Assembly (NCBI GenBank): GCA_002269645.1 | Contig: NIVC01000592.1 | Location: 124,001-188,000 of the forward strand | Origin: Macrostomum lignano | Lineage: Eukaryota | DNA: 64,000 nt | Direction: 5' to 3' | Part shown: in pieces, positions 1,773 through 57,240 of the stretch | How positions within the stretch are numbered: position 1 is the first letter of the stretch | Layout: every line of letters starts with the position of its first letter | Program-made: the position numbers and the translations under genes | Notes under the pieces: generated by a model | Told to the model about the DNA's origin: nothing | The model's input: only the letters and a program-made list of their open reading frames with translations | Databases searched by the model: none

Positions 1773-11638
<9,866 letters not shown>

Positions 11639-20834: not shown

Positions 20835-21139
20835 GGGGGTTGTAGCTTGTTGATTAGAGTGTCGGACTCACGACTGTAAGGTCGGGAGTTCGATTCACCA
20901 CCCACTCGTAACAATGTGTCCTTGTGCAGGACACTTAACTCTGCATTGCTACAGTTCAACCAGCTGTAAAATGGGTGCCAGCATTAGCTGGGGTAATTCA
21001 GGGTGTGTGGCGACCCTCCCCAGTCCTTGGACTGAACAGCCGTACGCAGCCTTCAGATGCGCTGCGCAATGGCTGCGGCTGAGCTGTCGGTTGCACATCT
21101 GGCCATTAGGACAGGTGTAATCAATTATTATTATTATTA
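20835..21139 (+). mobile_element. tRNA-derived CORE-type SINE
   Basis: tRNA-like head with A box (GTAGCTTGTTGATTAG) and B box (GGAGTTCGATTC); CORE-like block TGTGTCCTTG..GACACTTAAC...CTGTAAAATGGG; (ATT)n tail. A second copy is inverted at 56908-57240. Confidence 0.8.
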
Positions 21140-23590: not shown

Positions 23591-24754
23591 AAAGGTTGGT
23601 TCCATACACGAGCGTATTATCCAACAGAATTGACCTGCCATTTTATTCAAATTCAAACCAGCTTACTACTAGTAGGCAGGCCAGAATTTATTTTTTTGTG
23701 TAAAGAAACTACATCCTTGACCTTAGATGATGCATTCAGTTAACAGGTTGAAAATTTAGACATTGAAGAGCAACTTCGCGGCAATTTAAGCTGCAACTGA
23801 GAGCATCCACAGCAGGTTCCAATTTGCAAACACTTGGCAATAGATCGGAATAAGGACCAGGATTTTATATTATTATGATTCTATAGATTTCATAAAAATA
23901 CGTCGACAAGCGCAAGGAGTATAAGAATATATTTTACAGGAAGGCGAAAAGTACAAAACGATGCCCAAATTGTCCGGCGGCCCTCGACAGCTTGGCAGGC
24001 AAAAAACTCGACGATAAAAAGTATTGATACCGATTAATGTACGCAGATAGGAGCGCGAGGCAGTTAAAACTCAAGAACCAACGCCATCTGTACAGGTGGA
24101 CCAGGTTGGCTGTAAACAAAGTAATTTCTCTCTAATTTATCCTCATCCTTCAGTCGTGGCACCCCGATGAAAACTGTACTCAGAGTCGTTGCAGGTAACA
24201 CAGGTAAAATGGGAAAGAAGTGGCTCTGGAGACGACTCTAAAACAACGAGATGTCACGGTACAAGTCGACAAAAAGAGTCCGAGTTGCTGTGAAATCGCT
24301 GAATTGCATCTGAAGCACATCTGCGTCATTTAATGAATTAGAATTGCATTTCGCATTCATAACAATTCTATTTATTCTAATTGGCTTAGTAGACTTTTTC
24401 AACAGTCGCCACTCCGTTGCATTGAAGTCTTTACAAGAATCGCTCCAGAGTTGCTAGAGTCACTATTGAGTTGCTTGCGGTGACTCTTTAGCGATTCTTG
24501 TCAACAGTAACGTTTTCACCGGGTCCACTCCGCTCCTCATCCTCCAGTTGTGGGCCACCAACACCTTTCTGATTGTACAGACAGGTCCAAGAAATAAAAC
24601 GATTTTGCAGATAAGAAATTGCATGCTTCGAAAGCAAACACAAACACATTGATCAGGAATAAATCTAGTGAAAGTAAAATTCAGTGTAATAAGTAATCCC
24701 TTCAATATCAGTCTTGAATAATAATTAACTATTAACAAAGCTGAAAAATGAAAT

Positions 24755-27700
24755 TCAAACATTGTGAAAGTAGAGATTAGCGCACACGCACAGCAGGAAA
24801 ATGGCCACCGAGTTGAAGTAAATTAATCGGCGAAATCTGGGCTCCAGGTCGCCTTGCCTGTACCAGTACACCTGGGCAATGGGAGAGGGGGGTTCACCAT
24901 CATATGCCTGCATCTATGGGATGGCTATAATATCTAAGGGATCTCTACATTCTCTATGGTATTTCTATAATCTTTATGGGATCTCTATAATCTATTGGAT
25001 CTCTATAATCTCTATAGGATCTTTATAATCTCTATGGGATCTCTATAATCTCTATGAGTAGTAGGAAAGTGGTACCCTCTACCGCCATCGCACCGGATTG
25101 GCCGGGGCACCCGGCCAATGAGGGGAGAGGGCCCCCAAAAGACGCCCACCCCGACCCCAGACCCACCACCGCCGCACCCACCCCCGACCCCACCACCGCC
25201 ACGCACCCACCCCCGACCCAAACCGGGCCCCCAAAGACGCCCACCCCGACCCCAAACCCACGCACCCACCCCCGACCCCAAACCGGGCCCCCTCCTATCC
25301 ATCCCAAACCAAGGCCCCTCCTGTCCTGCACCCCATCTCATAACCAAGGCCCCCTCGTGTCCTACACCCCGTACATCCCATACCAAGGCCTCCTCCTATC
25401 CTGCACCCCATCCCAAACCAAGGCCCTGCCTGTCCTGTACCCCATCCCATACCAAGGCCCCTTCCTGTCCAGCACCCCATCCCATACCGGAGGCAGGAGA
25501 AATGGGTCGGGCAAGCCCAGGAGTGGGGTCGGGCAGGCCGGTCGAGCAGGCCAGATGAGGGGTCGGGCAGCCGAGTGTCTGGTTGATTGTCCAAGGGTGG
25601 GTATCGAGATGTGAATGAGTGTCCATTGGCGAGTGTCCTCCTACCGCGTGTGGTGACACGCAGCACAGAGTTTCAATGTGATCCGGTAGAGGGCCCGATT
25701 GCTTGGAATTTCCTAGTAGAGAGGGGAAGGGATTCTATTGGTCGAGCAAGCATTTGAAGTGATTTCCGAGTAATGTGGAGAAGGGATTCTATTGGTCGAT
25801 AGGTCTCTGGTGAACGATTTGGTTTGGACCCTGCGGGAGAAGGGCCCCAGTACCCTTTATAAATAAAGCACCTCGGCCCCATAGATTTTTTATTTATTTT
25901 AGATTGAATTAAAAATACAACAAAAATGCAAATAACTTGCGACTTCTGCGAGTCATCAGTAACCGGGGGCATTGAGGAGCACTATGCGGTATGCCCTGCG
26001 ATACCAGCACTGTTTGAGTCAGATGACTCCCCAACGATTCATTTTCAACTGATCAAGGAGGCGTTTAATGGCAGGTCCCGACTTTACCGGGCCAGTGAAT
26101 GCGGCGACCCGAGGAATTTGTTGGAAAACACTCGTCAAGCTTTCATTGACTTGATCACCCAGCATCAACGTGAGCCAGGAACCGCCATCAAAGTTCAGCT
26201 GCGCCTCGGGGTCCTGATGCAGCGCATCATTAATGGCCGCTGCGCCGCCGAGAACACCGCCTGGTTTGCTGCCAAGGTCCACTCTCTTATTCGGAGTGAG
26301 GAGGAGCAATACTTCTCTGACGACATGCAGACTATCCTCAACCGGATAGAGAAGTACCTACGCAATGGCAGTGGCTGGGAAATCAGGACCACTCGGTGTG
26401 TTGACGTGTCAACCGCAAGTTATTATCTACCGCATGGAGCGTCGTGCAAAAGGCCAAGAATGAGTTCAAGAAAGACAACGGGCCGCTAAACAACTCCCTG
26501 TAGACCCTAGAGAATGTTCGCAAGCAAGTGAGCTACCGACTGGTTTATTCAAAGCCTGTGGCCAAGTCAGCATTCCGCGACCAGATGATTTTCAAGGGGG
26601 ATTTAGTTCTGGTGCACGTTCTCAAGATGACAAGCCAGTGTCGGCCAGTGCGATCTGGACACTAGCAAGCTCTTTTTCTCACAATAACATTCTTTTCACA
26701 TATCTTTAATTTTTAACTATATGCATGTAAATTTAATACGAACATACTATATTTTAAATAATAATAAATACAAGCTTTACTCTATGATATTTGGTACACT
26801 GCAGGAGAGAAAAATGCTCTTTCACAAGAATATTTTTGCCATAATTAGTCATTTTTGTGCACATCTCTGGGTTAAAATCCTCATTGAAATGTATGTATTT
26901 TATCCAAAAGTATGTAAGTTTTCGCGCACAGTGATTAAAAGTGCGCAATATGACGTGACTTTTTTTGACAACATCCGTCAATTTTCATGCACAGGTTCGA
27001 GTAAAAATCCCTATTGAAATACATGTATTTTGTGCACAAGTATGCAAGTTTTCGTGCACAGTGTTAAAAAGTATGCAAAGTGTCGAGGTTTTTCGTGCAC
27101 ACATTCGGGTAAAAATTCCCATTGAAATGTATGTATTTTGTGCAAACATGCATGCTTTTTCGTGCACAACAGAGGCTAGAAACGCTAAATCCGCAGAAAC
27201 TGGTGGGGTGGGTAGTTTTTTTTTCAAGCCAGGTGTTTGGCATAAGAAAATGATAGGTACTAGAAATTTGGTAAAATGAAAAAGAAAAAGGCAATTTCCA
27301 ACCTTCTGCCAGGTATTTATTTCGACTGCAGTAGGCCGGGCAGCTATGGCGGCTATCAGGCATTAAATCGAGAGTTGCACAAACAGCACGGGCCCAAGTT
27401 TAGTGTAGGGCAGGTATGTATATACGATATACTCCTAAACCAATGATTTTCTAGAAAATTCCAGCTTAGGTTTTTAGTTGCTAGCAGTTTCCAGTTTTCA
27501 CACTAAAGGTAAAAACGTGGCTCCAAGACCAAGATGTCTACACACTGCATAGAGATAAACGCAAAAACTTTCGTCGAGCACCGATTGTGGTGCGGGGCAT
27601 GGATGACCAGTGGGAACTGGACCTGGTTGAAATGCTACCGTTTGCCAAGTACAATGGCGGCGTACGATATATTTTATGCTGCATTGATGTGCTCAGCAAG

Positions 27701-30700
27701 TTTGCCTGGGCTCAGCCGGTGCGCCGCAAGACAGCCGAGGAGGTTGCAGCCGGATTCGAAGCGATCCTAAATCGAGCTCACCCTCGATGCCCACGAGCAG
27801 TTCGGACCGACCGTGGAAAAGAGTTTTGTAACACCCAGTTCCGAGCCCTCTGCGTAAACCACAAAATTCATGCATTCACATCAAGTAGTGACCAGAAATG
27901 CGCAGTCATTGAGAGATGGAACCGCACACTGAAATCCCGAATGTGGCGGTACTTCCGTCACAAGTCAACATTAACCTGGACCGATGTGCTTCAACCCTTA
28001 GCAAAGGCATACAACCAGAGTATTCATCGGAGTATTCAAAGCCGACCAGTTGATGTCGACAAGTCAAACGAGATGGAAATTTGGCACCGGCTTTACGATG
28101 GGAAGCTTCCTGAGACTCGTGAAAAGGTCTCCAGACCAAAGTTCAAGGCAGGAATGATGGTGCGAATCTCTCTTCGCAATCTGGCCAACCCATTCACCAA
28201 GGGATACACAAGGGGATGGAGTGAGGAAGTATTTGAAGTCAAGTCCCTCCACCCCAAGCATTATCCATACATGTACACTCTGATCGATGCCCGAGGTGAA
28301 GAGTTGGAAGGCAAGTTTTACGAGCCGGAAATGCAGCAAGTGACTGGAAACAAGAAGCTGTGGATCATCGACAAGGTTCTCAACATTAAGAAGCTGAAGA
28401 GTGGAAAGATTCGGTATTTGGTTCAGTGGCGCGATTCAGAAAAACCCAGTTGGATTGACGTCAGACTGCAGCTGATGCCCTCTCCCGCATTTTGCTACCA
28501 GATCAAGCATCCGAACCTACTTTGCTGGACTCTGACTGAGCTCCTCTACGGCATAACAGTAGTAGTGAGATCTGCCTATGCACCGAGTAATAATAATAAT
28601 AATAATAATAATAATATTTTTGCTGTAACTTTACTTCTGTATTTCTTTTGTGTACAAAAGATAAAAAAATTAACGCGAATGCGACAATAGTGTTTGTACA
28701 ACAATGCTTACGAAAGTGAAATGTTTTTTTTGTTTATTTTATTGGCAGGTCCATGGATTGCAAAGCATAAAATTACATGTTAAAAGCTCGTATTAGCACA
28801 AAAAAGTTTATTAAGAACGGAAGGGCAGTATTAAGGCCCGTCGCCTGTATTTACAAAACAGTATTATCGCCCGGAATCAAAGCATGATGGGGCAATATTA
28901 TGGCCAGTATTGACAAAGCAATATATACAACAGTGCATGATCAGTACTATGGTTCAAAACTATATTAAAAAAAAGTTAATTGACGAAATGACCAGTTGTC
29001 GCTTCATGCATTGCGCGTCGCTTCATTGGTGGCTGGTGGAATGAAGGCTGTTGGTTCTTCTCAGCTGTTGGTGGCTCTTCCAGAGTTTCGAATGTAAATC
29101 TCTTTCTAAATTCAGCCTGAACTGCTTGGAAGGCCCCCCAGTGGTCGTCCCAATCTGCCGACTGCCTGTCAGGTACTTGCATCAGTTGGTCGAGCGTAAG
29201 CCTTGCTGCCCATGCTGAACACTTCAGATTCCGTAGGGTGGTATCCCATGGATCGCCGATCGGTGGCTCGACCGGAGGCTCTCGCTTGTCATTTTGTCTA
29301 GGACCCATTGCTTTTGAGCCCAGACTTCGCGCCAAAGTGTAGTAGGAAGCGGTAAGGCGTGCCTTAGGTGCACCGGCGGTCCGAGTACAGTTGGAAGGCG
29401 CCAGAGTGTGATTACGCCATTTTGCACAACCACTTGCCTGTTGCCACCCAGAAGGCATTGCGCATCGATACACTTTCTTGCAAACTCTTCCAGTCGTTCC
29501 TTCAGGCTGCCCAAGTGGCAAAACTGGTGGACGGTGAGCTCCATGCCAGGCAGACCTGGTCGATACTCTTCATCAAATTTGTACCACTTTCTGATGCTGA
29601 TGCACTTCGAGTGCGACCTGACGCCGATTCGAAATCTGTTCGATAATGTCTTGAAGTTCATTTTGTTCACTGTGAGCTTTCCTTCCGGCTGTGTGCGAGA
29701 TTATATACGACGAGAGTTGGTAAGTAACACCAGCTCCCGCTCCATAGCAATAACCAATCCGAACCCCGAATCCAACCCCACACAACAGCCCTCTCGCAGG
29801 AACTCTCGGCAAATCAGGAGCCCTTCCGGGGACCACTCAGCCATTTAGAAACCAGCTCCTGTTCCATAGCAATAACTAATCCGAACCCCAAATCCAACCC
29901 CCACACAGCAGCCCTTTCGCAGGAACTCGGGCCTTAACAAAGTCTCAGCCATCAACGTAACAGGAGGTGGCGGGACCTTCTTGCGGCCCTCTGGCCGCCA
30001 AGAAGTAGCGTTCTAGGTCTAACGACCTCACGCTGTACCCGCCACAGCAAGATACAGTACAACCAAAGCATGGAATGAGGGTTTTGCCTTGGCTAGCTTT
30101 AAAGGCGGTAAGTGAGACAGGTAATAAGACTTGGGTTTAGGAATTAGGAGGGGGGAATTGGTTTTGGTTAGGGTACAGGATAGAAGGACCTTGCTACATG
30201 GGATGGGGCAAGGCGTAGGATAGGAGGGGGACTTGGTATGGGATGCATGGGGTGCAGGACAGGAGGGGGTCTTGGTATGGGATGCACGGGGTGCAGGACA
30301 GGAGGGGTGTAGGACAGGAGGGGGTCTTGGTATGGGATGCACGGGGTGCAGGACAGGAGGGGTGTAGGACAGGAGGGGGTCTTGGTATGGGATGCACGGG
30401 GTGCAGGACAGGAGGGGTGTAGGACAGGAGGGGGTCTTGGTATGGGATGCATGGGGTGCAGGACAGGAGGGGGTCTTGGTATGGGATGCACGGGGTGCAG
30501 GACAGGAGGGGGTCTTGGTATGGGATGCACGGGGTGCAGGACAGGAGGGGGTCTTGGTATGGGATGCACGGGGTGCAGGACAGGAGGGGTGTAGGACAGG
30601 AGGGGTGTAGGACAGGAGGGGGCCTGGTTTGGGGTCGGGGGTGGGTGCGTGGGTTTGGGGTCGGGATTGGGTGCGTGGCGGTGGTGGGTTTGGGGTCGGG

Positions 30701-33700
30701 GTGGTTTTGGGGGTCGGGGTGGGTTTGGCGTCGGGGTGGGCGTCTTCGGGGCGCCCTCTCCCCTCATTGGCCGGGTGCCCCGGCCAATCCCGTGCGATGG
30801 CGGTAGAGGGTACCACTTTCCTACTACTTTCCTACTACTACGGTAGGAGCTGGTTTCTAAATGGCTGAGTGGTCCCCGGAAGGGCTCCTGATTTGCCGAG
30901 AGTTCCTGTGAGAGGGCTGTTGTGTGGGGTTGGATTCGGGGTTCGGATTGGTTATTGCTATGGAGCGGGAGCTGGTGTTACTTACCAACTCTCGTCGTAT
31001 ATAATCTCGCACACAGCCGGAAGGAAAGCTCACAGTGAACAAAATGAACTTCAAGACATTATCGAACAGATTTCGAATCGGCGTCAGGTCGCACTCGAAG
31101 TGCATCAGCATCAGAAAGTGGTACAAATTTGATGAAGAGTATCGACCAGGTCTGCCTGGCATGGAGCTCACCGTCCACCAGTTTTGCCACTTGGGCAGCC
31201 TGAAGGAACGACTGGAAGAGTTTGCAAGAAAGTGTATCGATGCGCAATGCCTTCTGGGTGGCAACAGGCAAGTGGTTGTGCAAAATGGCGTAATCACACT
31301 CTGGCGCCTTCCAACTGTACTCGGACCGCCGGTGCACCTAAGGCACGCCTTACCGCTTCCTACAAAACTTTGGCGCGAAGTCTGGGCTCAAAAGCATTGG
31401 GTCCTAGACAAAATTGTCAAGCGAGAACCTCCGGTCAAGCCACCGATCGGCGATCCATGGGATACCACCCTACGGAGCCTGAAGAGTGTGCAGCATGGGC
31501 AGCAAGGCTTACACTCGACCAACTTATACAAGTACCTGACAGGCAGCCGGCAGAGTGGGACGACCACTGGGAGGCTTTCCAGGCAGTTCAGGCTGAATTT
31601 AGAAAGAGATTTGCATCCGAAACTCTGGAAGAGCCACCAACAGCTGAGAAGAACCAACAGCCTTCATTCCACCAGCCACCAATGAAGCGACGCGCAATGC
31701 ATGAAGCGACAACTGGTCATTTCGTCAATTAACGTTTTTAATATAGTTTTGAACCATAGTACTGATCATGCACTGTTGTATATACTGCTTTGTCAATACT
31801 GGCTATAATATTGCCCCATCATGCTTTGATTCCGGGCGATAATACTGTTTTGTAAATACAGGCGACGGGCCTTAATACTGCCCTTCCATTCTTAATAAAC
31901 TTTTTTGTGCTAATACGAGCTTTTAACATGTAATTTTATGCTTTTCAATCCATGGACCTGCCAATAAAATAAACAAAAAAAAAAACATTTCATTTTCGTA
32001 AGCATTGTTGCACAAACATAGTCGCATTCGCGTTTATTTTTTCTTATATTTTGTACACAAAAAATATAGAAGTAAAGTTATAGGAAAAATATTATTATTA
32101 TTATTATTATTATTATTACTCGGTGCATAGGCAGATCTCACTACTACTGTTATGCCGTAGAGGAGCTCAGTCAGAGTCCAGCAAAGTAGGTTCGGATGCT
32201 TGATCTGGTAGCAAAATGCGGGAGAGGGCATCAGCTGCAGTCTGACGTCAATCCAACTGGGTTTTTCTGAATCGCGCCACTGAACCAAATACCGAATCTT
32301 TCCACTCTTCAGCTTCTTAATGTTGAGAACCTTGTCGATGATCCACAGCTTCTTGTTTCCAGTCACTTGCTGCATTTCCGGCTCGTAAAACTTGCCTTCC
32401 AACTCTTCACCTCGGGCATCGATCAGAGTGTACATGTATGGATAATGCTTGGGGTGGAGGGACTTGACTTCAAATACTTCCTCACTCCATCCCCTTGTGT
32501 ATCCCTTGGTGAATGGGTTGGCCAGATTGCGAAGAGAGATTCGCACCATCATTCCTGCCTTGAACTTTGGTCTGGAGACCTTTTCACGAGTCTCAGGAAG
32601 CTTCCCATCGTAAAGCCGGTGCCAAATTTCCATCTCGTTTGACTTGTCGACATCAACTGGTCGGCTTTGAATACTCCGATGAATACTCTGGTTGTATGCC
32701 TTTGCTAAGGGTTGAAGCACATCGGTCCAGGTTAATGTTGACTTGTGACGGAAGTACCGCCACATTCGGGATTTCAGTGTGCGGTTCCATCTCTCAATGA
32801 CTGCGCATTTCTGGTCACTACTTGATGTGAATGCATGAATTTTGTGGTTTACGCAGAGGGCTCGGAACTGGGTGTTACAAAACTCTTTTCCACGGTCGGT
32901 CCGAACTGCTCGTGGGCATCGAGGGTGAGCTCGATTTAGGATCGCTTCGAATCCGGCTGCAACCTCCTCGGCTGTCTTGCGGCGCACCGGCTGAGCCCAG
33001 GCAAACTTGCTGAGCACATCAATGCAGCATAAAATATATCGTACGCCGCCATTGTACTTGGCAAACGGTAGCATTTCAACCAGGTCCAGTTCCCACTGGT
33101 CATCCATGCCCCGCACCACAATCGGTGCTCGACGAAAGTTTTTGCGTTTATCTCTATGCAGTGTGTAGACATCTTGGTCTTGGAGCCACGTTTTTACCTT
33201 TAGTGTGAAAACTGGAAACTGCTAGCAACTAAAAACCTAAGCTGGAATTTTCTAGAAAATCATTGGTTTAGGAGTATATCGTATATACATACCTGCCCTA
33301 CACTAAACTTGGGCCCGTGCTGTTTGTGCAACTCTCGATTTAATGCCTGATAGCCGCCATAGCTGCCCGGCCTACTGCAGTCGAAATAAATACCTGGCAG
33401 AAGGTTGGAAATTGCCTTTTTCTTTTTCATTTTACCAAATTTCTAGTACCTATCATTTTCTTATGCCAAACACCTGGCTTGAAAAAAAAACTACCCACCC
33501 CCACCAGTTTCTGCGGATTTAGCGTTTCTAGCCTCTGTTGTGCACGAAAAAGCATGCATGTTTGCACAAAATACATACATTTCAATGGGAATTTTTACCC
33601 GAATGTGTGCACGAAAAACCTCGACACTTTGCATACTTTTTAACACTGTGCACGAAAACTTGCATACTTGTGCACAAAATACATGTATTTCAATAGGGAT

Positions 33701-36700
33701 TTTTACTCGAACCTGTGCATGAAAATTGACGGATGTTGTCAAAAAAAGTCACGTCATATTGCGCACTTTTAATCACTGTGCGCGAAAACTTACATACTTT
33801 TGGATAAAATACATACATTTCAATGAGGATTTTAACCCAGAGATGTGCACAAAAATGACTAATTATGGCAAAAATATTCTTGTGAAAGAGCATTTTTCTC
33901 TCCTGCAGTGTACCAAATATCATAGAGTAAAGCTTGTATTTATTATTATTTAAAATATAGTATGTTCGTATTAAATTTACATGCATATAGTTAAAAATTA
34001 AAGATATGTGAAAAGAATGTTATTGTGAGAAAAAGAGCTTGCTAGTGTCCAGATCGCACTGGCCGACACTGGCTTGTCATCTTGAGAACGTGCACCAGAA
34101 CTAAATCCCCCTTGAAAATCATCTGGTCGCGGAATGCTGACTTGGCCACAGGCTTTGAATAAACCAGTCGGTAGCTCACTTGCTTGCGAACATTCTCTAG
34201 GGTCTACAGGGAGTTGTTTAGCGGCCCGTTGTCTTTCTTGAACTCATTCTTGGCCTTTTGCACGACGCTCCATGCGGTAGATAATAACTTGCGGTTGACA
34301 CGTCAACACACCGAGTGGTCCTGATTTCCCAGCCACTGCCATTGCGTAGGTACTTCTCTATCCGGTTGAGGATAGTCTGCATGTCGTCAGAGAAGTATTG
34401 CTCCTCCTCACTCCGAATAAGAGAGTGGACCTTGGCAGCAAACCAGGCGGTGTTCTCGGCGGCGCAGCGGCCATTAATGATGCGCTGCATCAGGACCCCG
34501 AGGCGCAGCTGAACTTTGATGGCGGTTCCTGGCTCACGTTGATGCTGGGTGATCAAGTCAATGAAAGCTTGACGAGTGTTTTCCAACAAATTCCTCGGGT
34601 CGCCGCATTCACTGGCCCGGTAAAGTCGGGACCTGCCATTAAACGCCTCCTTGATCAGTTGAAAATGAATCGTTGGGGAGTCATCTGACTCAAACAGTGC
34701 TGGTATCGCAGGGCATACCGCATAGTGCTCCTCAATGCCCCCGGTTACTGATGACTCGCAGAAGTCGCAAGTTATTTGCATTTTTGTTGTATTTTTAATT
34801 CAATCTAAAATAAATAAAAAATCTATGGGGCCGAGGTGCTTTATTTATAAAGGGTACTGGGGCCCTTCTCCCGCAGGGTCCAAACCAAATCGTTCACCAG
34901 AGACCTATCGACCAATAGAATCCCTTCTCCACATTACTCGGAAATCACTTCAAATGCTTGCTCGACCAATAGAATCCCTTCCCCTCTCTACTAGGAAATT
35001 CCAAGCAATCGGGCCCTCTACCGGATCACATTGAAACTCTGTGCTGCGTGTCACCACACGCGGTAGGAGGACACTCGCCAATGGACACTCATTCACATCT
35101 CGATACCCACCCTTGGACAATCAACCAGACACTCGGCTGCCCGACCCCTCATCTGGCCTGCTCGACCGGCCTGCCCGACCCCACTCCTGGGCTTGCCCGA
35201 CCCATTTCTCCTGCCTCCGGTATGGGATGGGGTGCTGGACAGGAAGGGGCCTTGGTATGGGATGGGGTACAGGACAGGCAGGGCCTTGGTTTGGGATGGG
35301 GTGCAGGATAGGAGGAGGCCTTGGTATGGGATGTACGGGGTGTAGGACACGAGGGGGCCTTGGTTATGAGATGGGGTGCAGGACAGGAGGGGCCTTGGTT
35401 TGGGATGGATAGGAGGGGCCCGGTTTGGGGTCGGGGGTGGGTGCGTGGGTTTGGGGTCGGGGGTGGGCGTCTTTGGGGGGCCCGGTTTGGGTCGGGGGTG
35501 GGTGCGTGGCGGTGGTGGGGTCGGGGGTGGGTGCGGCGGTGGTGGGTCTGGGGTCGGGGTGGGCGTCTTTTGGGGGCCCTCTCCCCTCATTGGCCGGGTG
35601 CCCCGGCCAATCCGGTGCGATGGCGGTAGAGGGTACCACTTTCCTACTACTTCTATGGGATCTCTATAATCTCTATGGGATCTTTATAATCTCTATGGGA
35701 TCTTTAAAATCTCTATAGGATTTTTATAATCTCTATAGGATCTCTATAATCTCTATGGGATCTTCATAATCTCTATGGGATCTCTATAATCTCTATAATC
35801 TCTATGGGATCTCTATAATCTCTATGGGATCTCTATAATCTCTATGGGATCTCTATAGTCTCTATAGGATCTTTATAATCTCTATGGGATCTTTATAATC
35901 TCTATAGGATCTTTATAATCTCTATGGGATCTCTATAATCTCTATAGGATCTTTATAATCTCTATAGGATCTTTATAATCTTTATGGGATCTCTATAATC
36001 TCTATAATCTCTATGGGATCTCTATAATCTCTATAATCTCTATGGGATCTCTATAATCTCTATAATCTCTATGGGATCTCTATAATCTCTATAGGATCTC
36101 TATAATCTTTATGGGATCTTTATAATCTCTATAGGATCTTTATAATCTCTATGGGATCTCTATAACCTCTATGGGATCTTTATAATCTCTATAGGATCTT
36201 TATAATCTCTATAGGATCTTTATAATCTCTATGGGATCTTTATAATCTCTATGGGATCTCTATAACCTCTATGGGATCTTTATAATCTCTATAGGATCTT
36301 TATAATCTCTATGGGATCTCTATAATCTCTATGGAATCTCTATAATCTTTAAGGGATCTCGAATCTCAGATGCATCATTTCGATTCTCAAAGGCATCTCA
36401 AAATCTCAAAAATGTCTAAAAAGTATCAGAAGGATCGCTATACTCTAAACTCACTAAGGTCTCACTAAATGGAATCCTTTAATAACATAAACTACAAAAA
36501 TGCCCAACTATACAGCCTGCCAAAATTAGCATTCCCAAATAATACAAAACCCACCAGCAGCAGATGCGAAGAGGCCAGCATGGCTATGCAGCCAGCGAAC
36601 ATGATGTTGACTCCACGCGGTGGCCACTTGGGAAAGACAAATGCGAATACCAGAGTGAGCAGTACAGAGAGGCTGACCACCCCGGCTATGATGTAGTGCA

Positions 36701-36773
36701 ACAGGCTGTCTGTTGCCCGACTCTCGCCAAACAGCGGCCGCTCAATGGGCTCATAGCGGCCACTGGAACTCAT
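24755..36773 (-). CDS. TMEM243: Transmembrane protein 243 homolog, 111 aa, two coding exons
   Basis: Exon 1 is 36555-36773 (73 aa, RPLFGES...FAFVFPKWPP..NIMFAGC), donor GTGGGT. Exon 2 is 24755-24871 (VYWYRQGDLEPRFRRLIY...LCVCANLYFHNV*), acceptor CCCAG. It matches the recalled human TMEM243 motifs RPLFGET and YWYRQGDLEPKFRKLIY..CANLYFHDV. The intron 24872-36554 (11.7 kb) hosts the Polinton. Confidence 0.92.
25727..25863 (+). promoter_or_regulatory. Putative promoter of the pPolB relic: duplicated 19-bp motif with inverted CCAAT box, plus TATA
   Basis: AAGGGATTCTATTGGTCGA at 25727 and 25781; TATAAA at 25858-25863, ~63 bp before the ATG at 25926. Function is inferred. Confidence 0.4.
25926..26665 (+). 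pseudogene. Internally deleted protein-primed family B DNA polymerase relic (left arm)
   Basis: The 187-aa ORF has the N-terminal ...IEKYLRNGSGWEI....VDVSTASYYLPHGAS motif. Another frame (26444-26665) reads AKNEFKKDNGPLNNSL*TLENVRKQ..LV..KP..K..F....IFKGDLVLVH, a damaged PolB motif B region. Confidence 0.7.
26850..27170. repeat. Three imperfect ~120-130-bp AT-rich repeats (TTGAAATGTATGTATTTT core) inside the Polinton arm; mirrored at ~33540-33860
   Basis: Core at ~26885, ~27014 and ~27122. Confidence 0.6.
27276..28690 (+). CDS. Polinton retroviral-like (RVE) integrase with chromodomain, two exons, ~439 aa (left arm)
   Basis: Exon 1 27276-27413 (MKKKK..IYFDCSRPGSYGG..), intron 27414-27508 (GTATGT...AAG), exon 2 27509-28690 (VKTWLQDQDVYTLH...). 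DDE residues in ELDLVEM, RTDRGKEF and IERWNRTLK; chromo-like YLVQW...SW. Confidence 0.9.
28976..29670 (-). pseudogene. PC4/SUB1-like ssDNA-binding domain protein, ~231 aa when repaired; 1-nt deletion in this arm
   Basis: ISIRKWYKFDEEYRPGLPGMELTVHQFCHL resembles PC4 [31 protein letters not shown]. The frame shifts at VLDK (~29290). Confidence 0.6.
30198..30839 (-). repeat. Internal third Polinton terminus (divergent TIR) with ~39-bp tandem expansion
   Basis: Reads ...GGGTACCACTTTCCTACTACT-TTCCTACTACT at 30808-30839. Clearly homologous to, but diverged from, the TIR at 25057. Confidence 0.88.
31035..31732 (+). pseudogene. PC4-like ORF, right-arm copy; 2-nt insertion at a different site
   Basis: Same N-terminus as the left copy; frameshift at CTGAAGAGTGTG (~31470). 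698-2 = 696 nt, equal to the left copy's 695+1. Confidence 0.6.
32034..33430 (-). CDS. Polinton RVE integrase, right-arm copy with the same 95-bp intron (33198-33292)
   Basis: The translation is identical to the left copy up to the poly-Asn tract; the C-terminal tail differs. Confidence 0.9.
34042..34781 (-). pseudogene. pPolB relic, right-arm copy
   Basis: The 187-aa ORF 34218-34781 is identical to the left copy. Confidence 0.7.
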
Positions 36774-37981
36774 TTGGCTAGAGTTTTATATTTGTCTGCT
36801 TTGGCGATTTCTGTTGGCTATTAATGTAGTTTTAGTTTTTTTGTGCTGCAATTGAAACCAAAGCAGTTAAATAGGATTTATATTTATATGATTTTTGTAC
36901 CTGAAATTTATTGCAATACAGATTACTACATTAATAGTAGAACTACAAAGAGGGGGAATCTCCCCTTGACAATTCTTTGCTACACAGGAATGGAGCAACA
37001 CAGGCACACAAAATTCAAGAACACAGGCTAAACTTTCTATTGTGCACCTTCTCAAACAAGAATCAAGTCGCCAGCTCTCTGGAATATTGAGATATTTGAT
37101 GATTATGCTAGAAAGTTGAAAATTTTCCATAAGCTCTAGTGTATTTAGTATGCCCCTGTGCACCAATCAGCACCCTTGCACCTCAGTGCAGCCTTGCCAA
37201 GTCTCTGAATTTCATCAGCAGGTCAACCACATGTGTCTGCATCAGCTTTGACTTTGCTGGTCACTAGAAGCCTTCACACAGACGGAGCTTCTGGACCTTC
37301 AACAGGTAGTACCAAGTGACTATAGACATATTGTTACAAATTTCTCAAGCTTTGCAAATTAAGCCTTGATGGTAGGCAAGCCTCAACAGTTTGGACATCC
37401 TTAGCTAGTCTCTCAAGCATTCTATCATTACCTGGATACCATTGGTACCTTTAAGAGATTATACCAAGTGACTAAAAACACCCAGATTTGAATTTCTCTA
37501 GTTTTGCTAAGCAACCCTCAACAGTGGGCAAGCCTTAACTTTAACTTTTGAAGCCACTAGAGACCCTCTAAATGGTAAAAAAACAAATAAAATTGTATAT
37601 TATTTATAAAATATAGCTTATATTTAAGATCATAATACAAAAAATTAGCACACATTAGAAACAAATAGCATATAGTTAGCATATAAAATAGGCTATATTT
37701 AAGGACTTTTGCTACACTTTTTGGTTTGGCATATTGTAACATATCTGCATATCCAATTTAAAAGTAAAGAATTTTGTATTTACTTGTCTTTTGTATTTGT
37801 ATGATAGTATTTCTATAGTATTTCTCTTTTATTGTATTTTCCACTGTATGTATTTATGTAATGTTGCATAATTGTTTTATAATTTAGTTTTGTTTTAATG
37901 AACAATATGAAAAAATATATAATAAATTGTCAATGGTTCACTCATAAGAGGTCCCCACTCTGATTTGGCACTTTCGGCTGA

Positions 37982-40900
37982 TGTGGTATATGCGCATATA
38001 AAGTATATTTCATTTCACACACATTGGCCATAGACACTGTCCCTGTTAACCCTGCGTTCTAAAGCTAATATAAGGAGAGCAAATATAAAGGAAATGAATG
38101 TTAACATCGGCATGGCAAGAGCCCGCTACCAAGCTTGAGATTACTAACCATAATTCACCTGGACTTCGAGTTGGTAACGGAAGTCGGATGTAACATTGGC
38201 GACGAGGATTCTTCAGAAGAAGACAAAATGACCGCGCCAAATACTGCTTCGAAAATCAGCACATTTGATCCGGCACAACCTGAAAGGTGGACTGTATACG
38301 AGGAGCGTCTGGAACAATACTTCATCGCTAAATCCATCACCAAAGAGGAGATTAAGCGAGCCGAGCTCATCACAGTAATTGGTGAAGACTGCTATACGTT
38401 GCTCAGAGACTTACTGTCTCCAGACTCCCCGAAGGACAAATCCTACGATGATTTAATTGAAAAGTTACGAACGCATTTCACCCCAACGCCGAAAAGAATC
38501 GTCGAGAGATACAACTTTCATCACCGAAGCCAGCAGGAAGGCGAATCCATTGCAGAGTATGTCGCGCAGCTACGGAAGTTGGCAGCGACCTGTTCGTTTG
38601 GAGGCTTTTTGTCAGAGGCGATCAGAGACAGACTGGTTTGTGGACTACGAAGCAAGCTGACACAGCAAAGGCTGCTGCAGGAGGACGATGTTTCACTGGA
38701 CGACGCAGTTAAAATCTCGACAGCAATCGAAATCGCAGAGAAGGGTGCAATGCAGATCCACACTGGAAGAGACATTGTCGGCCTGGCTCAGGCCAATGCG
38801 GTATGTGGAAGATCATCTGCTAAGGGATCGGGACCGACGAATCCGGCCAGTTCAGACGACCGGTGCTACAGGTGCCTCTCTTCTGGGCACTGGGCGAGAA
38901 ACTGTCCCAAAAGATTGCATGTATGCAGTCGATGCAATAAACCAGGTCATGTTGAGAAGGCGTGCAGGACGAAGCAGAAGCAGTTCAGCGGAAACCAACC
39001 GCCGCACAGCAAGAAGAAGTTCGAAACCAAGCAGAGCTACAAAGGTAGGAAAATAAAGCATCTGAGTGCAAATGGAAGCCCCGGCAGTAGTGAGAAGTCG
39101 TACGATTTCTCTGACGTCAAGAACGTCGCTGTCAATTCAAATTACGAGGCTAAGCGAATGAGCGCACAGAAGGCTCGGTTCAAGCCTTTCACAGAGACAC
39201 TGCAAGTCAACGGGTCTCCGATTAAATTCGAAGTGGACACCGGCGCCGAGCGCACAATTGTAAACAAATCGACAGCGGAACTAATCCGAGTTAAACCGCG
39301 CGGCACGACCTTGGTCCTCACATCTTATTCTAACGAACAGATTCCCCTACTTGGAGAGGCTGTGGTTCAGGTTGTATTTGGCGACATTGCGACGGAGCTG
39401 CAGGTCGTCGTCACTGACGGCACAAAGCAGAACCTGCTAGGTCGCGATTGGATAACGCAGCTTGATCCCCTGGCCCGGAAATACGCAGGAGAAGCGTCAA
39501 CAGTGGGAATTCTTTCCCTCGATGCTGATCACGAGCTCAAGACGATTCTAGAAGAAAATTCGGAATTATTCTCAGATGGTCTTGGGAAGATAAAACATTA
39601 TACAGCCAGACTGCATCTCAAGGAGAACACAACTCCAAAGTTTTGTAAAGCACGACCGGTACCATTTGCTCTTAAGCCCGCCATCGAGCAGGAACTCAAA
39701 AGCCTAGAGAATCAGGACATTATCCGGAAGGTGAAGACGTCTGACTATGCAAGTCCAATCGTCCCTGTGCTGAAGAAGGATGGAAAATCGATACGAATCT
39801 GTGCAGACTATAAGCGAACCATAAACCCTGCCCTCGAGGTGGACATTTATCCGCTAGGCAAGCCGGACGAACTGTTTACTCGACTCAGCGGAGGCAAATT
39901 CTTTACAAAACTGGACATATCTCAGGCCTTTCTTCAGCTGGAGCTACAGGAGGAGTGCCGCAAGTACACCACTATCAACACCCATATGGGCCTGTACGAA
40001 TACAACAGATTAGTTATGGGCCTGGCAAGCTCTTCAGCTCAGTTTCAGGAGGCTATGGACAAGATTCTGAGCGATACCGATGCGATTTGTTTCGTCGATG
40101 ATATCGTCATTAGCGCCGCATCACAAAGCGAGCATAACAAAAAGCTGAGAAACGTTTTGGTTCTGCTGAAGAACCACGGAATTAAACTGAACAAGAGCAA
40201 ATGTGAATTCATGATGCGCGAGATTGAGTTCCTCGGTCACGTGATCGACGAGAACGGCGTGCATCAGTCACCGAGAATTATGAGAGCCATCGCGGAGGCT
40301 CCAAGGCCAACCAATATTCCAGAAGTCCGCTCGCTAGTTGGGCTAATCAACTACTATAGGAAGTTCATCAGAGGCCTGTCCGACATCCTAGCACCTCTAA
40401 ATGCATTGCTCCAGAAGGACGCTGAGTTTATTTGGAGTAACGAGTGTGAACGAGCATTTGTTGCGTGCAAGTCAGCTCTAACATCTACTCAAGTACTAGT
40501 CCACTACGACCCGGACAAGCCGCTGGTTGTTCATACCGATGCGTCATGCTATGGTGTCGGCGCGGTGCTTTCACATATTATGAGCAATTCGGATGAGAAG
40601 CCAATCTGTTATGCGTCCAGAGGCCTGTCCAAGGCTGAGAAGAACTATTCGCAAATAGAAAAGGAAGGTTTAGCAATAGTCTTCGCGGTGAAAAAGTTCC
40701 ACCAGTATTTGTACGGCAGACGGTTTATTCTGGTCACTGACCATAAACCGCTTGTGACGATATTCGGTCCGAAGAACAACATTCCAAGCATAGCTGCCAG
40801 TTGGTTGCAGCGCTGGGCTGTGATTCTATCAGCCTATCAGTTCGAGATTCGATACAGGCGGACAGACGAACATGGAAATGCGGACGCGTTGTCAAGACTG

Positions 40901-42570
40901 CCGCTGGAGAATACTAAGTCCACGGAGGATGGTGTGTTCCAGAATCGCATAGAGGCTCAACCAATCGACCATGGAGAGTTAAAGAGAGCAACAGCGATGG
41001 ACGAAAATCTGTCCCGTGTTCTGCGATACTGTCGTTTTGGGTGGCCAGAACATAGCGAACAAGAGCTTCAGCCCTACCACTCGAGGCGAAACGAGCTGAG
41101 TGTTGAAGATGGAGTCATCTTTTGGGGCATCAGGATGTTGATCCCTGCTTCACTGAAGCAGCAGCTACTGCAACTGCTACACGAAGGGCACCCCGGCATT
41201 GTGGGCATGAAGTCCCTGGCACGGCTGCATGTTTGGTATCCAGGGATCGATAAAGACATCGAGACGGCTCTAACCAAATGCAAGGGTTGCCAAGCGCAGA
41301 GGAACCTGCCGCCACAGGCGCCACTGCAGCCGTTGCTCTGGCCAGAAAAGGCATGGACTCGACTTTACTTGGACTTCTTTAGTCCATGCTACGGGTTCAT
41401 GTGGCTTGTCGTTGTCGATGCCACAACCAAATGGGTTGAAATTTACCCGATGAGGTCAGCGACTGCCCATGGCACGATCACCAAGCTGCAGGAAACTTTC
41501 GCGAGATATGGTTATCCGAGGCAAATCCTCTCTGACAATGGGTCGCAGTTCACTGCTGAGGAATTTAAAAACTACCTTCGAAGCTGCCGCATCACACAAA
41601 TTCTGACGTCGGTGGGGCATCCAAGATCGAATGGACTAGCTGAACGAATGGTTCAGACCGCCAAAAGAGCGTTAAGAGCGGGCATGAAGGACTCTCATGA
41701 TGCACTAGAATGCCTAAATGCTTTTCTAGCGCGCTACCGAGTTACGCCACACTCTACAACCGGCAAGACGCCTAGCGAGATGATGCTAAAGTACTCGCCA
41801 AGAACTAAACTTAGTCATCTTCACCAGGACACCGAGCAAAGAGTTGCTGAGAAGCAGGAGCAGCAGAAGCAGCAACACGACAAGGGAGCTTCAAAAGTAG
41901 CCCGTGAGTTTGAACCTGGAGAATCTGTGCTTGTGCTCGACTTCAGGAAGCAAGGAGAGGACAAATGGGTCGTCGGAGAAATTCTTAAACGCCGTGCACA
42001 ACTCTCATATCTGGTGAAAGTAGGCCGCATGGTCTGGAAACGGCATGTGGACCACATTACTTCGACAGGACTTCAAACGGAGAGCAAGGCCGCTTTGTCC
42101 CATGAATTGCTGGAGCAGCTAATCGGGAAAGGCAATAACGAGTCGCAGGCAATTAACTCAGGCGGAGGAGCGACAACCAAGACTAGATGTGCGGAGACTG
42201 CCCAGGCCAGGAGGCATCGCTACAAGCATGAGGATGTGCCTCTAACTCAGACCAGACTGAGACCCCGAGCTGCAACTTGATGTGACGGAAATTTTTGTTT
42301 AAGAGGAAAACTTACTCTTGCACAATGACGAACAAATTTTTCTAAGGGGAGACATATGTGGTATATGCGCATATAAAGTATATTTCATTTCACACACATT
42401 GGCCATAGACACTGTCCCTGTTAACCCTGCGTTCTAAAGCTAATATAAGGAGAGCAAATATAAAGGAAATGAATGTTAACATCGGCATGGCAAGAGCCCA
42501 CTACCAAGCTTGAGATTACTAACCATAATTCACCTGGACTTCGAGTTGGTAACGGAAGTCGGATGTAACA
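37982..42570 (+). mobile_element. Full-length Ty3/Gypsy LTR retrotransposon, Mag-like, 4,589 bp
   Basis: 214-bp LTRs (37982-38195, 42357-42570; TG...CA; one mismatch seen). 5-bp TSD GCTGA. PBS TGGCGACGAGGAT (complement of the tRNA-Ser(GCU) 3' end). PPT AAGGGGAGAC. Confidence 0.97.
38228..42280 (+). CDS. Gag-Pol polyprotein, 1350 aa, uninterrupted
   Basis: Two CCHC knuckles (CYRC..GH...NC, CSRC..GH...AC), protease VDTGA, RT FVDD, RNase H TDAS..EKE, integrase HEGH..CKGC with D,D,E (LDFF, SDNG, AERMV). Confidence 0.96.
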   Translation: MTAPNTASKISTFDPAQPERWTVYEERLEQYFIAKSITKEEIKRAELITVIGEDCYTLLRDLLSPDSPKDKSYDDLIEKLRTHFTPTPKRIVERYNFHHRSQQEGESIAEYVAQLRKLAATCSFGGFLSEAIRDRLVCGLRSKLTQQRLLQEDDVSLDDAVKISTAIEIAEKGAMQIHTGRDIVGLAQANAVCGRSSAKGSGPTNPASSDDRCYRCLSSGHWARNCPKRLHVCSRCNKPGHVEKACRTKQKQFSGNQPPHSKKKFETKQSYKGRKIKHLSANGSPGSSEKSYDFSDVKNVAVNSNYEAKRMSAQKARFKPFTETLQVNGSPIKFEVDTGAERTIVNKSTAELIRVKPRGTTLVLTSYSNEQIPLLGEAVVQVVFGDIATELQVVVTDGTKQNLLGRDWITQLDPLARKYAGEASTVGILSLDADHELKTILEENSELFSDGLGKIKHYTARLHLKENTTPKFCKARPVPFALKPAIEQELKSLENQDIIRKVKTSDYASPIVPVLKKDGKSIRICADYKRTINPALEVDIYPLGKPDELFTRLSGGKFFTKLDISQAFLQLELQEECRKYTTINTHMGLYEYNRLVMGLASSSAQFQEAMDKILSDTDAICFVDDIVISAASQSEHNKKLRNVLVLLKNHGIKLNKSKCEFMMREIEFLGHVIDENGVHQSPRIMRAIAEAPRPTNIPEVRSLVGLINYYRKFIRGLSDILAPLNALLQKDAEFIWSNECERAFVACKSALTSTQVLVHYDPDKPLVVHTDASCYGVGAVLSHIMSNSDEKPICYASRGLSKAEKNYSQIEKEGLAIVFAVKKFHQYLYGRRFILVTDHKPLVTIFGPKNNIPSIAASWLQRWAVILSAYQFEIRYRRTDEHGNADALSRLPLENTKSTEDGVFQNRIEAQPIDHGELKRATAMDENLSRVLRYCRFGWPEHSEQELQPYHSRRNELSVEDGVIFWGIRMLIPASLKQQLLQLLHEGHPGIVGMKSLARLHVWYPGIDKDIETALTKCKGCQAQRNLPPQAPLQPLLWPEKAWTRLYLDFFSPCYGFMWLVVVDATTKWVEIYPMRSATAHGTITKLQETFARYGYPRQILSDNGSQFTAEEFKNYLRSCRITQILTSVGHPRSNGLAERMVQTAKRALRAGMKDSHDALECLNAFLARYRVTPHSTTGKTPSEMMLKYSPRTKLSHLHQDTEQRVAEKQEQQKQQHDKGASKVAREFEPGESVLVLDFRKQGEDKWVVGEILKRRAQLSYLVKVGRMVWKRHVDHITSTGLQTESKAALSHELLEQLIGKGNNESQAINSGGGATTKTRCAETAQARRHRYKHEDVPLTQTRLRPRAAT

Positions 42571-43475: not shown

Positions 43476-43648
43476 CATATGTGCGCAACCTTGGAAATCA
43501 CCCGGCCATTTCTATTGGCAACATACACATGTAAGTCGCTTATTGGCTAAGAGCAGTCACGTGATTACTATTCTATCCAATATCAACATACATGTGTGTG
43601 TTGCCAATAGAAACAGCCAAGCGAATCCCAAGGTTGCGCCCAGGCATG
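43476..43648. mobile_element. 173-bp palindromic MITE, CAT...ATG termini, 8-bp TSD TGTATTTA
   Basis: TIR core GCAACCTTGG...CCAAGGTTGC. The paralogous empty site near 37850 carries a single TGTATTTA. Confidence 0.88.
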
Positions 43649-43929
43649 TGTATTTATGTAATATTGTATAATTGTTTGATAATTTAGTTTTGTTTTAATT
43701 AACAATATGAAATAATATATAATAAATTCTCAATGGTTCACTTGTAAGAGTTTGCTGCTCTGATTTAGCACTTTTGGCTGAGAATTCAAAAGAGGATCCT
43801 TGGCATTCATTTCTTTACAATATATTCAGTATTATTATACTGCATAGTATACATGATACATGTAGCTTATAAGCCTAGCATGCTAGGTCAAGATATAAAA
43901 TATATAAAAGGTCAAATAAGAAACAGATC

Positions 43930-44481
43930 GGCAATCCTACACTTCCGTTCGGTAAATTATTTTGACATTGAATTTTGAACAGGCGTGGTAAATAACAATG
44001 TAACCAAACAAAACTAAAACAGTGGAACATGGTAGCAGTCTGTTAGTGCGCATAGTCACTTAGAGTGTGTCTGCAGGTCATTAAGGTGTCTACAATGGAT
44101 AGTAATGTCCAATCCAGTACAGGATAGCCCCAAATGGACATTGGGGATACAGACGACACCAGAGAAATTCCTCAATGTGTGTGTCAAAGAGAGCGTCGCT
44201 CGTGCCATGCATGTTGCGGATCTTGCGCTTCGCGTGGGCCCATGTGCCCTCCACAGTGTTGGTGTGGACATGTCTCCATGGCAATGAAGACTGGAAGATA
44301 TGGGAAATTGAAGCTCAATAAAACAAGCAGCTCACAAGCAACAGCTCCCTTAAACTGACACCCCTTTAAACTCTGTTTGCTCAAACTTTGGCCATAGACA
44401 CATTGCCAATCGACATCATTTGACTCGGTGGTACGAATTCAAATGTGAAAATAATTTACCGAACGGAAGTGTAGGATTGCC
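43930..44481 (-). mobile_element. 552-bp non-autonomous Merlin (IS1016/IS1595-like) DNA transposon retaining the transposase C-terminus
   Basis: 34-bp perfect TIR GGCAATCCTACACTTCCGTTCGGTAAATTATTTT; 8-bp TSD AACAGATC/AACAGATA (7/8). ORF 44090-44284 reads HTNTVEGTWAHAK...G......HIEEFLW, an ISXO2-type C-terminal motif. Confidence 0.82.
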
Positions 44482-46829: not shown

Positions 46830-47001
46830 CATGCTTGGGCACAACCTTGGGATTCACCCGGCCATTTCCATTGGCAACACACACATATAAGTTGCTATTG
46901 GATGGAATAGTAGTCATGTGACTGCTCTTGGCCAATAGCAACTTACATGTGTGTGTTGCCAATGAAAACGGCCGAGTGAATCCCAAGGTTGCACATGTAT
47001 G
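46830..47001. mobile_element. 172-bp MITE of the same family as 43476-43648, opposite orientation, 8-bp TSD GGTATAAT
   Basis: TSD at 46822-46829 and 47002-47009; the central segment is the reverse complement of the other copy. Confidence 0.88.
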
Positions 47002-47249
47002 GGTATAATACCTGTGTCATGACACATTGGCACAAAACCATTTCCAGTTTACACCTGAGACTAGGTATCAACAGGATCTTGATCCCAATCTCATTATCTC
47101 TAAATCCTGAAGGATCCCAACAATAATGAAATATGATCTATGCAATTGAAGTTGATGGGCATCAACTTGCTGATCAAACAATGCACCGTGTCAGACTGCG
47201 ATAACTCATCCCAACTTTGCAGTTTTGAAGTTTTTCTGCACCAAAGAAA

Positions 47250-56907: not shown

Positions 56908-57240
56908 TAATAATAATAATAGTATTAATAATATTTATAATTGATTACACCTGCCCCAATTGGACCAGGTGTGCAACCGACAGCTCAGCCGCAGCTATAG
57001 CTATAATTGCGCGGCGCATCTGAAGGCTGCGTACGGCTGTTCAGTCCGAGGACTGGGGAGTCGCCACACACAGCCTCAATTACCCCAGCTAATGCTGGCA
57101 CCCATTTTACAGCTGGGTGAACTGAAGCAATGCAGAGTTAAGTGTCTTGCTCAAGGACAAATTGTTCCAGTGAGATCGGGAATCGAACCCCCGACCTTCA
57201 ATTCGTGAATCCAACGCTCTAACCACTAGGCTATAACCCC
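56908..57240 (-). mobile_element. tRNA-derived CORE-type SINE, second copy
   Basis: Reverse-complement homolog of 20835-21139, with a (TAA)n tail at 56908 and the head GGGGTTATAGCCTAGTGGTTAGAGCG at 57240. Confidence 0.85.

Follow-up and report, generated by a model that had tools for sequence, protein, structure and literature searches.

The window analyzed here is a stretch of 64,000 nucleotides from Macrostomum lignano. It holds a long palindrome that raises a question of origin: how did two inverted arms become almost identical over most of their length and carry a patch of about 0.7 kb in which they differ by about 5%?

Boundaries and Classification of the Palindrome

By self-comparison, a single long inverted repeat was found at 25057-29860 against 30845-35651, with 98.9% identity over 4,815 alignment columns. 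The palindrome starts with AGTAGT at 25057 and ends with ACTACT up to 35651. It is flanked by a 20-nt minisatellite, which keeps one orientation across the insertion. The repeat phase of this minisatellite shows that the bordering hexamer is duplicated, being out of phase with a simple insertion into the minisatellite. The outer boundaries are as follows.

25051-25056, plus strand: left 6-bp target site duplication, within the 20-nt minisatellite; the hexamer recurs at 35652-35657
35652-35657, plus strand: right 6-bp target site duplication; the minisatellite goes on to 36360
25057-25488, plus strand: outer left terminal inverted repeat, starting with (AGT)2 and containing 35-nt subterminal repeats

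A frame matching Pfam DUF2678 was found at 36492-36785, immediately to the right of the flanking minisatellite.

Judged by these features and by its gene content, the 10.6-kb palindrome in its entirety is a single deletion derivative of a Polinton/Maverick, predicted to be non-autonomous. Mavericks are described as having (AGT)2...(ACT)2 or (AG)3...(CT)3 ends and a 6-bp target duplication (PMC8097293). The palindrome shares with the elements in the available descriptions its (AGT)2...(ACT)2 ends, the 6-bp target duplication, an rve integrase with a chromodomain-like part, pPolB homology (as a relic only), and terminal repeats of ~430 bp (PMC8097293, PMC10748475). It departs from an intact Polinton in that pPolB is deleted and broken and the unique unit spans 5.8 kb as against 13-25 kb. 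No ORFs for capsid, ATPase, or protease were seen in the ORF list of 24000-37000, a region too full to accommodate a morphogenetic module. At 4.8 kb, the functional inverted repeats are also far longer than the 46-1,447 bp given for intact vertebrate Mavericks (PMC8097293, PMC10748475).

Distribution of Differences Between the Arms

The arms were compared by global alignment of 25057-29860 with the reverse complement of 30845-35651. In total, 44 differences were found, comprising 32 substitutions and 12 indels. They divide each arm into three blocks.

25057-28621, plus strand: outer identical block of the left arm, partner of 32085-35651; no substitutions, four homopolymer indels
28622-29341, plus strand: divergent patch, left-arm version, covering AT-rich intergenic DNA and the 3' half of a PC4-like gene; partner 31364-32084
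29342-29860, plus strand: inner near-identical block of the left arm, with the PC4 domains and a ~120-nt tandem duplicate; partner 30845-31363
30845-31363, minus strand: inner block of the right arm
31364-32084, minus strand: divergent patch, right-arm version
32085-35651, minus strand: outer block of the right arm, with the second integrase, the pPolB relic, and the outer terminal inverted repeat

Within 25057-28614, no substitutions were found in 3,558 bp, and each of the four one-base indels lies within a C or G run; the 95% upper bound on the divergence of this outer block is 0.084%. The interval 28615-29345 holds 31 substitutions and 8 indels per 731 bp. The divergent island is at least 60 times as diverged as the outer block. 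At the inner side, 29350-29860 (511 bp) contains exactly one substitution, at a CpG (29796/30909), in agreement with the single SNP that a preliminary description of this DNA had estimated. The same description had proposed a divergent patch between near-identical blocks. This patch is real: 39 of the 44 differences fall in 28622-29341, giving about 5% over 720 bases. The ~19 substitutions in ~285 bp reported for its inner part were recovered as 19 substitutions and 2 indels in 256 bp (29090-29345).

The clustering was compared with 20,000 random placements of the 44 events. The maximum reached was 21 events per 760 bp, versus 39 seen, and 14 per 260 bp, versus 21 seen. None of the 20,000 placements attained the observed clustering, which bears out the claim that divergence is not uniform along the arms. 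Three blocks with edges at 28621 and 29341 are selected by BIC, and five or six by AIC. The interior of the patch is uneven, with a quieter stretch at 28724-29090 (6 events per 367 bp; permutation p = 0.003 for all events and 0.026 for substitutions only). The divergence is graded along the arm: 0, about 8-12, 1.6, 8, and 0.2%. CpG transitions make up 4 of the 32 substitutions. No signal of GC-biased conversion was found among the strong/weak differences between the arms (16 versus 11).

A Third Terminus in the Spacer

The arms are separated by one further feature.

29861-30844, no strand assigned: non-palindromic spacer of 984 bp holding the original right end

Inside this spacer, an internal terminal repeat was found on the minus strand at about 30133-30828. 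It ends with (ACT)2 at 30828 and faces the left end. The stretch 25057-30828 thus makes up a complete unit of 5.8 kb, to which the right arm adds an extra inverted copy of the left 4.8 kb. A third terminus inside the element sets it apart from the Polintons/Mavericks in the available descriptions, and the feature was absent from the preliminary description. Past the internal terminus, 11 nt of its sequence are repeated, a few additional bases follow, and the right arm then begins at a shared AGGA.

The internal and outer termini differ at 6 of the first 110 nt, with no difference within the first 37, and have 79% identity over 441 nt. The subterminal units also differ: all five outer ones have G where 7 of the 8 internal matches have A. 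The difference between the termini (6/110) is statistically indistinguishable from that in the patch (31/731; p = 0.62). No stable hairpin was found at the central junction or the inner patch edge (z 0.2-0.6). No other copy of the element was found in the 64-kb window, where only the AAT run was matched.

A sequencing fold-back had been rejected in the preliminary description, and the same conclusion was reached here from the same-orientation flanks with their 6-bp duplication, the 984-bp non-palindromic spacer, and the 39 clustered differences. A fold-back chimera would need a perfect mirror reaching into the flank and a minimal center; neither is present.

Genes in the Outer Block

The following coding features were found in the left arm outside the patch.

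25926-26672, plus strand: pPolB relic, with an open N-terminal part (25926-26489) fused via a large deletion to a decayed C-terminal piece
27276-28459, plus strand: Polinton-type integrase with two exons (27276-27413 and 27509-28459), its last ~7 codons and stop codon gone
28460-28616, plus strand: 128-nt segment replacing the integrase end, followed by (AAT)n at 28588-28616

The pPolB relic matches residues 18-188 and 974-1060 of P0059 (1259 aa, Pfam DNA_pol_B_2), the one match among 316 candidates. The C-terminal piece is decayed, with a stop codon, gaps, and a frame change. Beside it, the N-terminal part remains an open frame of 187 aa, on which selection may have continued to act once the deletion had occurred. 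In the AT-rich region before the integrase, at 26833-27168, degenerate direct repeats were observed (about 71% identity over 231 nt).

The integrase contains the Pfam domain rve (E = 3.8e-13) and a weak Chromo match. Protein searches yielded 55 homologs, many with rve and Chromo, the closest having 77% identity. A 95-nt phase-0 GT-AG intron is predicted at 27414-27508 and at the mirror position in the right arm, with AG/GT at both ends. Close homologs have no interruption at this position, and the two exons align with consecutive residues of P0004 and of P0005. Intact vertebrate Mavericks, in contrast, were reported to be intronless (PMC8097293). Conservation was assessed in 50 of the 55 homologs, the last five matches being left out. 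The integrase violates none of the 37 columns conserved at 90%, as is also the case for 16 of the 50 homologs; with the threshold lowered to 80%, it departs from 3 of 61 columns, the homolog median being 4. The probability of retaining 37 of 37 conserved columns under decay is 0.05-0.18.

The integrase frame runs through the 128-nt foreign segment and the (AAT)n into the patch. Owing to the lost stop codon and this read-through, the last ~20 codons differ between the arms (401 versus 395 aa). The arms had been described as giving identical translations of both ORFs; this holds for the pPolB relic and fails at the end of the integrase ORF. One frame of the foreign segment (28460-28587) reads ADALSR and has a weak likeness to the end of the Gypsy-type RNase H encoded in the window (E = 0.065). 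Pfam searches with this segment, the antisense ORF, the C-terminal piece of pPolB, and the PC4 tail gave no matches for any of the four.

Under simulated neutral decay at the per-arm rate of the patch, the four coding stretches (1,992 nt) stayed open in 0.05, 7.8, and 15% of simulations with the point, low, and zero indel rates, respectively. This test is soft, since the stretches were chosen for being open, the C-terminal piece of pPolB is itself decayed, and the indel rate comes from two events. It offers a soft argument that the divergence accumulated while the lineage was still mobile, rather than at the present locus.

The PC4-Like Gene and the Coding Effect of the Patch

The inner edge of the patch lies within a PC4-like gene, present in both arms.

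28976-29661, minus strand: left copy of the PC4-like gene; the frame is broken in the linker, and arm-specific indels occur at 29290 and 29221
31044-31732, plus strand: PC4-like gene, right copy, with the PC4 part and the conserved tail in different frames and the break between 31415 and 31457

The PC4-like ORF matches Pfam PC4 with E = 2.6e-5, which is weaker than the curated cut-off. Three homologs were found among 126 candidates, at 52-58% identity. In tblastn, P0001 and P0003 match the left copy in two frames; by these homologs, the conserved tail is out of frame with the PC4 domains in both arms. A tandem duplicate (29729-29805 and 29851-29928, 91% identity) was observed upstream of the gene, and the right arm begins where its second copy begins.

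Of the 19 substitutions in the frames supported by homologs, 7 are silent, as against 26% expected (omega about 0.6, p = 0.20); two of the 19 are ambiguous because they adjoin indels. No significant synonymous excess was found in any of the six frames. Several synonymous codon changes had been put forward in the preliminary description. The codons cited are real and lie in the homolog-supported tail frame; their number shows no excess, and as evidence for two lineages under selection they fail. Agreement with the homologs is split between the arms: the left arm matches P0001/P0003 at QLM and WGA, and the right arm matches them at RQP and in the MGYHP stretch. Since neither arm agrees with the homologs throughout and no silent excess is seen, the patch looks like drift in both versions.

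Two candidate explanations of the gene structure were discarded. The 213-aa ORF of the right arm was considered as an intact gene, but its tail is unlike the homologs, and the matching tail sits in another frame. An intron behind the frame change was also considered; by eye, no usable GT-AG pair was found in 31415-31457.

Other Inverted Repeats and Genes in the Window

A second, unrelated long inverted repeat was found in the window.

59848-63620: inverted repeat with an 815-nt spacer and a 19-nt minisatellite of unequal length in the two arms

This repeat is also blocky, with 7 of its 10 differences within 113 bp (p = 0.0014, the interval being chosen post hoc) and an identical run of 273 bp (p = 0.004). 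A piece of it recurs at 56098-56310 with about 88% identity. Further inverted pairs at 3722-4113, 43485-46992, and 20836-21070 with 57006-57240 have 96, 85, and 88% identity and spacers of 65, 3,181, and 35,935, respectively. No significantly long identical run was found in these three pairs. Such a run is present in one of the four other inverted pairs, and template switching could yield that too.

Minisatellites are very dense, with 95 Tandem Repeats Finder rows in the window, including a 1.1-kb AGAT-type array at 5940-7106. An uninterrupted Gypsy-type gag-pol frame of 1,391 codons with protease, RT, RNase H, and integrase domains was found at 38105-42280, and an exon of an eIF4E-family gene (Pfam IF4E) at 47229-47690.

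Origin of the Patched Palindrome

In the reading we favor, with a probability of about 0.45, the second arm arose recently by copy-back starting at the right terminus, and a diverged sister copy served as template for ~0.7 kb of it; this probability also covers a later two-crossover conversion from a sister copy, which would give the same end product. The starting point would be a 5.8-kb non-autonomous Polinton derivative (25057-30828) with a terminal repeat at either end. Synthesis would join the original right terminus to position 29860 and run back to the left end, in the course of either break repair or element replication, the copying being done by host repair or by the pPolB of a helper. 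Palindromic products are known from protein-primed replication in phi29 and adenovirus. For about 0.7 kb the copying strand would use a sister copy that had drifted by 4-8% and would then return, leaving a self-sister-self arm. The target duplication, the block structure, the overall architecture, the internal terminus, and the bases at the junction are observed; the direction and timing of the copying, the existence of the donor, and the arm that took the patch are what we infer. The right arm is structurally the derived one, and the patch could be in either arm.

Several observations point to the copy-back. A single event would yield both very young flanking blocks (0/3,558 and 1/511 substitutions), so that the separate step of palindrome-mediated conversion in the preliminary description becomes unnecessary. 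The complete old right terminus, the 11-nt repeat, and the AGGA at the join are what a template switch predicts. The old and new termini are as divergent as the patch, which implies that the family contains sequence pairs of such divergence. Both patch versions depart from the homologs, as two drifting copies would, and ageing in place fits poorly with the open coding stretches and the intact integrase columns. The outer patch edge coincides with a structural junction, where (AAT)n lies beside the foreign segment and where donor homology could end. Precedents exist: A-B-A chimeras with a diverged donor arise in yeast repair synthesis (PMC12891019), and extension of terminal inverted repeats and X-E-X copies are described for Galileo (PMC3573991). 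Other observations weigh against it. No donor copy was found in the window, and the proteins found are no closer than 58% (PC4-like) and 77% (integrase). The uneven patch requires, if the donor was single, that this donor was uneven or that the 3' region was constrained. The blockiness of the unrelated inverted repeat at 59848-63620 suggests that an arm-to-arm process acts more generally. Of the two lineages or ectopic conversion invoked earlier, a sister lineage as the foreign source of the patch is retained in this copy-back, and the support from synonymous changes is lost (p = 0.20).

The equal divergence of patch and termini suits just as well an old palindrome, an explanation that comes next in weight and, though somewhat unlikely, falls little short of the first. 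The arms would have been duplicated long ago and kept alike by repeated arm-to-arm conversion, either through host repair or through stem pairing of the displaced strand during element replication, while the AT-rich, indel-prone island escaped and drifted; no second lineage would be involved. The graded divergence along the arm would then reflect tracts of different ages, and the internal terminus, which lacks a counterpart in the mirror half, shows the same amount of drift as the patch. The changes look neutral in both arms, and the second inverted repeat with its 815-nt spacer is also blocky, in contrast to the three other pairs, in which identical runs are not significantly long. In nematodes, long inverted repeats are reported to be actively maintained (PMC1803023), and multi-kilobase conversion tracts are reported for a human Y palindrome (PMC3723533). 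However, two separate and very recent tracts, one of them 3.5 kb, would have to flank the island. The open integrase and other ORFs would be improbable had the ageing happened at the locus, although a palindrome moving as a unit may preserve its integrase. Furthermore, 4 CpG transitions among 32 substitutions give little sign of a long stay in methylated DNA, the methylation state of the host being an assumption. A fusion of two elements, X and Y, is clearly less probable. They would have been joined tail to tail and integrated via the outer ends, conversion then homogenizing the outer 3.5 and inner 0.5 kb and leaving the patch and the internal terminus as the remainder of the original X/Y difference. 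One step would explain why the internal terminus has patch-level divergence and a distinct variant of the subterminal repeat. A single target duplication encloses the entire unit, and tandem mosaic copies as well as internal repeats are described for Polinton-like viruses (bioRxiv 10.64898/2026.10.13.758929). The fusion nonetheless requires a join plus two independent, complete, and recent homogenizations, and the central join is not flush from terminus to target as an integrase would produce it. In the Galileo account, moreover, two-subfamily chimeras lack matching target duplications (PMC3573991), whereas the unit here has one.

The mosaic might also be driven by the termini of the element itself, a proposal we consider improbable, marginally more so than the fusion. 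Polinton copies would exchange internal blocks at terminus-like sites, where synthesis would be primed or the integrase would cut, and the palindrome would represent a defective-genome-like lineage of copy-back origin that still moves as a 10.6-kb unit with a spliced integrase after loss of the polymerase. In the 4.4 kb of the left arm outside the terminal repeat, three matches of at least 8 nt to the terminal 16 nt were found, two of them, the best of the arm, at the patch edges: 8 nt at 28558 and 10 nt at 29339. The latter is the only 10-nt match and is completed by two left-arm-specific substitutions. Bases of the terminus are fused to internal AGGA at the central junction also. The edge matches gave p = 0.02 by sliding the patch and p = 0.0015 by shuffling the terminus, both tests being post hoc. 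The least probable explanation is an artifact of assembly or polishing, in which the arms combine two mis-phased haplotypes or paralogs, or in which polishing equalized diverged arms outside the patch. Palindromes in minisatellite-rich DNA are hard to assemble, and all four outer indels are in C or G runs and resemble read errors. Haplotypes identical over 4 kb and yet 5% apart in 0.7 kb would, however, merely relocate the mosaic, and polishing to a common consensus should have erased the four homopolymer differences too. The right end carries ~430 nt of the outer-type terminus rather than the internal type, which makes a jump of a chimeric read into the right flank unlikely, and the target duplication is in phase.

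Comparison With Known Systems

Butterfly Polintons likewise have kilobase inverted repeats that duplicate core genes and polB-less derivatives that are apparently still mobile. Their ~2-kb repeats, in contrast, hold capsid and protease genes, and neither a divergent patch between the repeats nor an internal terminus is reported in the portion of the preprint available (bioRxiv 10.1101/2025.02.07.637071).

Galileo of Drosophila mojavensis has terminal inverted repeats lengthened by inverted copying of internal sequence, as well as mosaic copies with a segment from another subfamily, for which repair and conversion were proposed as the cause (PMC3573991). The first of these features was found here, with internal sequence inverted beside a second terminus in gene-bearing arms of 4.8 kb. 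Galileo differs in being a P-superfamily transposon whose longest terminal inverted repeats are ~1.2 kb. In its X-E-X copies, the foreign part is central rather than a patch in one arm, and the sections available report no retained internal terminus (PMC3573991). Repeat expansion in Polintons is noted in the same paper as already reported, possibly with reference to Kapitonov and Jurka 2006 (PMC3573991).

Interchromosomal template switching in yeast likewise leaves an A-B-A chimera, a few hundred bases long and internal to a copied tract, and yeast repair synthesis makes one-base slips in homopolymer runs (PMC12891019). The yeast results come from an engineered assay; in the palindrome, the donor is an inferred one, and the homopolymer indels may just as well be read errors. 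Host palindromes with arm-to-arm conversion share near-identical arms around a spacer (PMC3723533, PMC1803023). These are host DNA, unlike the single mobile-element insertion found here. In a literature search at the level of titles and abstract openings, no Polinton was found that is palindromic and has either an internal terminus or a patched arm; such an element may already be described in Kapitonov and Jurka 2006 or in Repbase.

Significance for Polinton Evolution

The processes able to make a patched palindrome are already known, and a single locus carries modest weight. The patch in the palindromic Polinton remnant most likely stems from a repair accident of a known kind, here unusually clear. 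The locus also calls for caution in dating insertions by the identity of arms or terminal inverted repeats, since one element gives <0.1, 4-8, or 5.5% depending on the part compared. If the termini drove the mosaic, the palindrome would show at the sequence level how the mosaicism reported for Polinton-like viruses could arise. If the copy-back with a switch to a sister copy is true, the locus would be a clean natural record of Polinton copies lengthening their inverted repeats and exchanging blocks with relatives, processes proposed for Galileo and measured in yeast.
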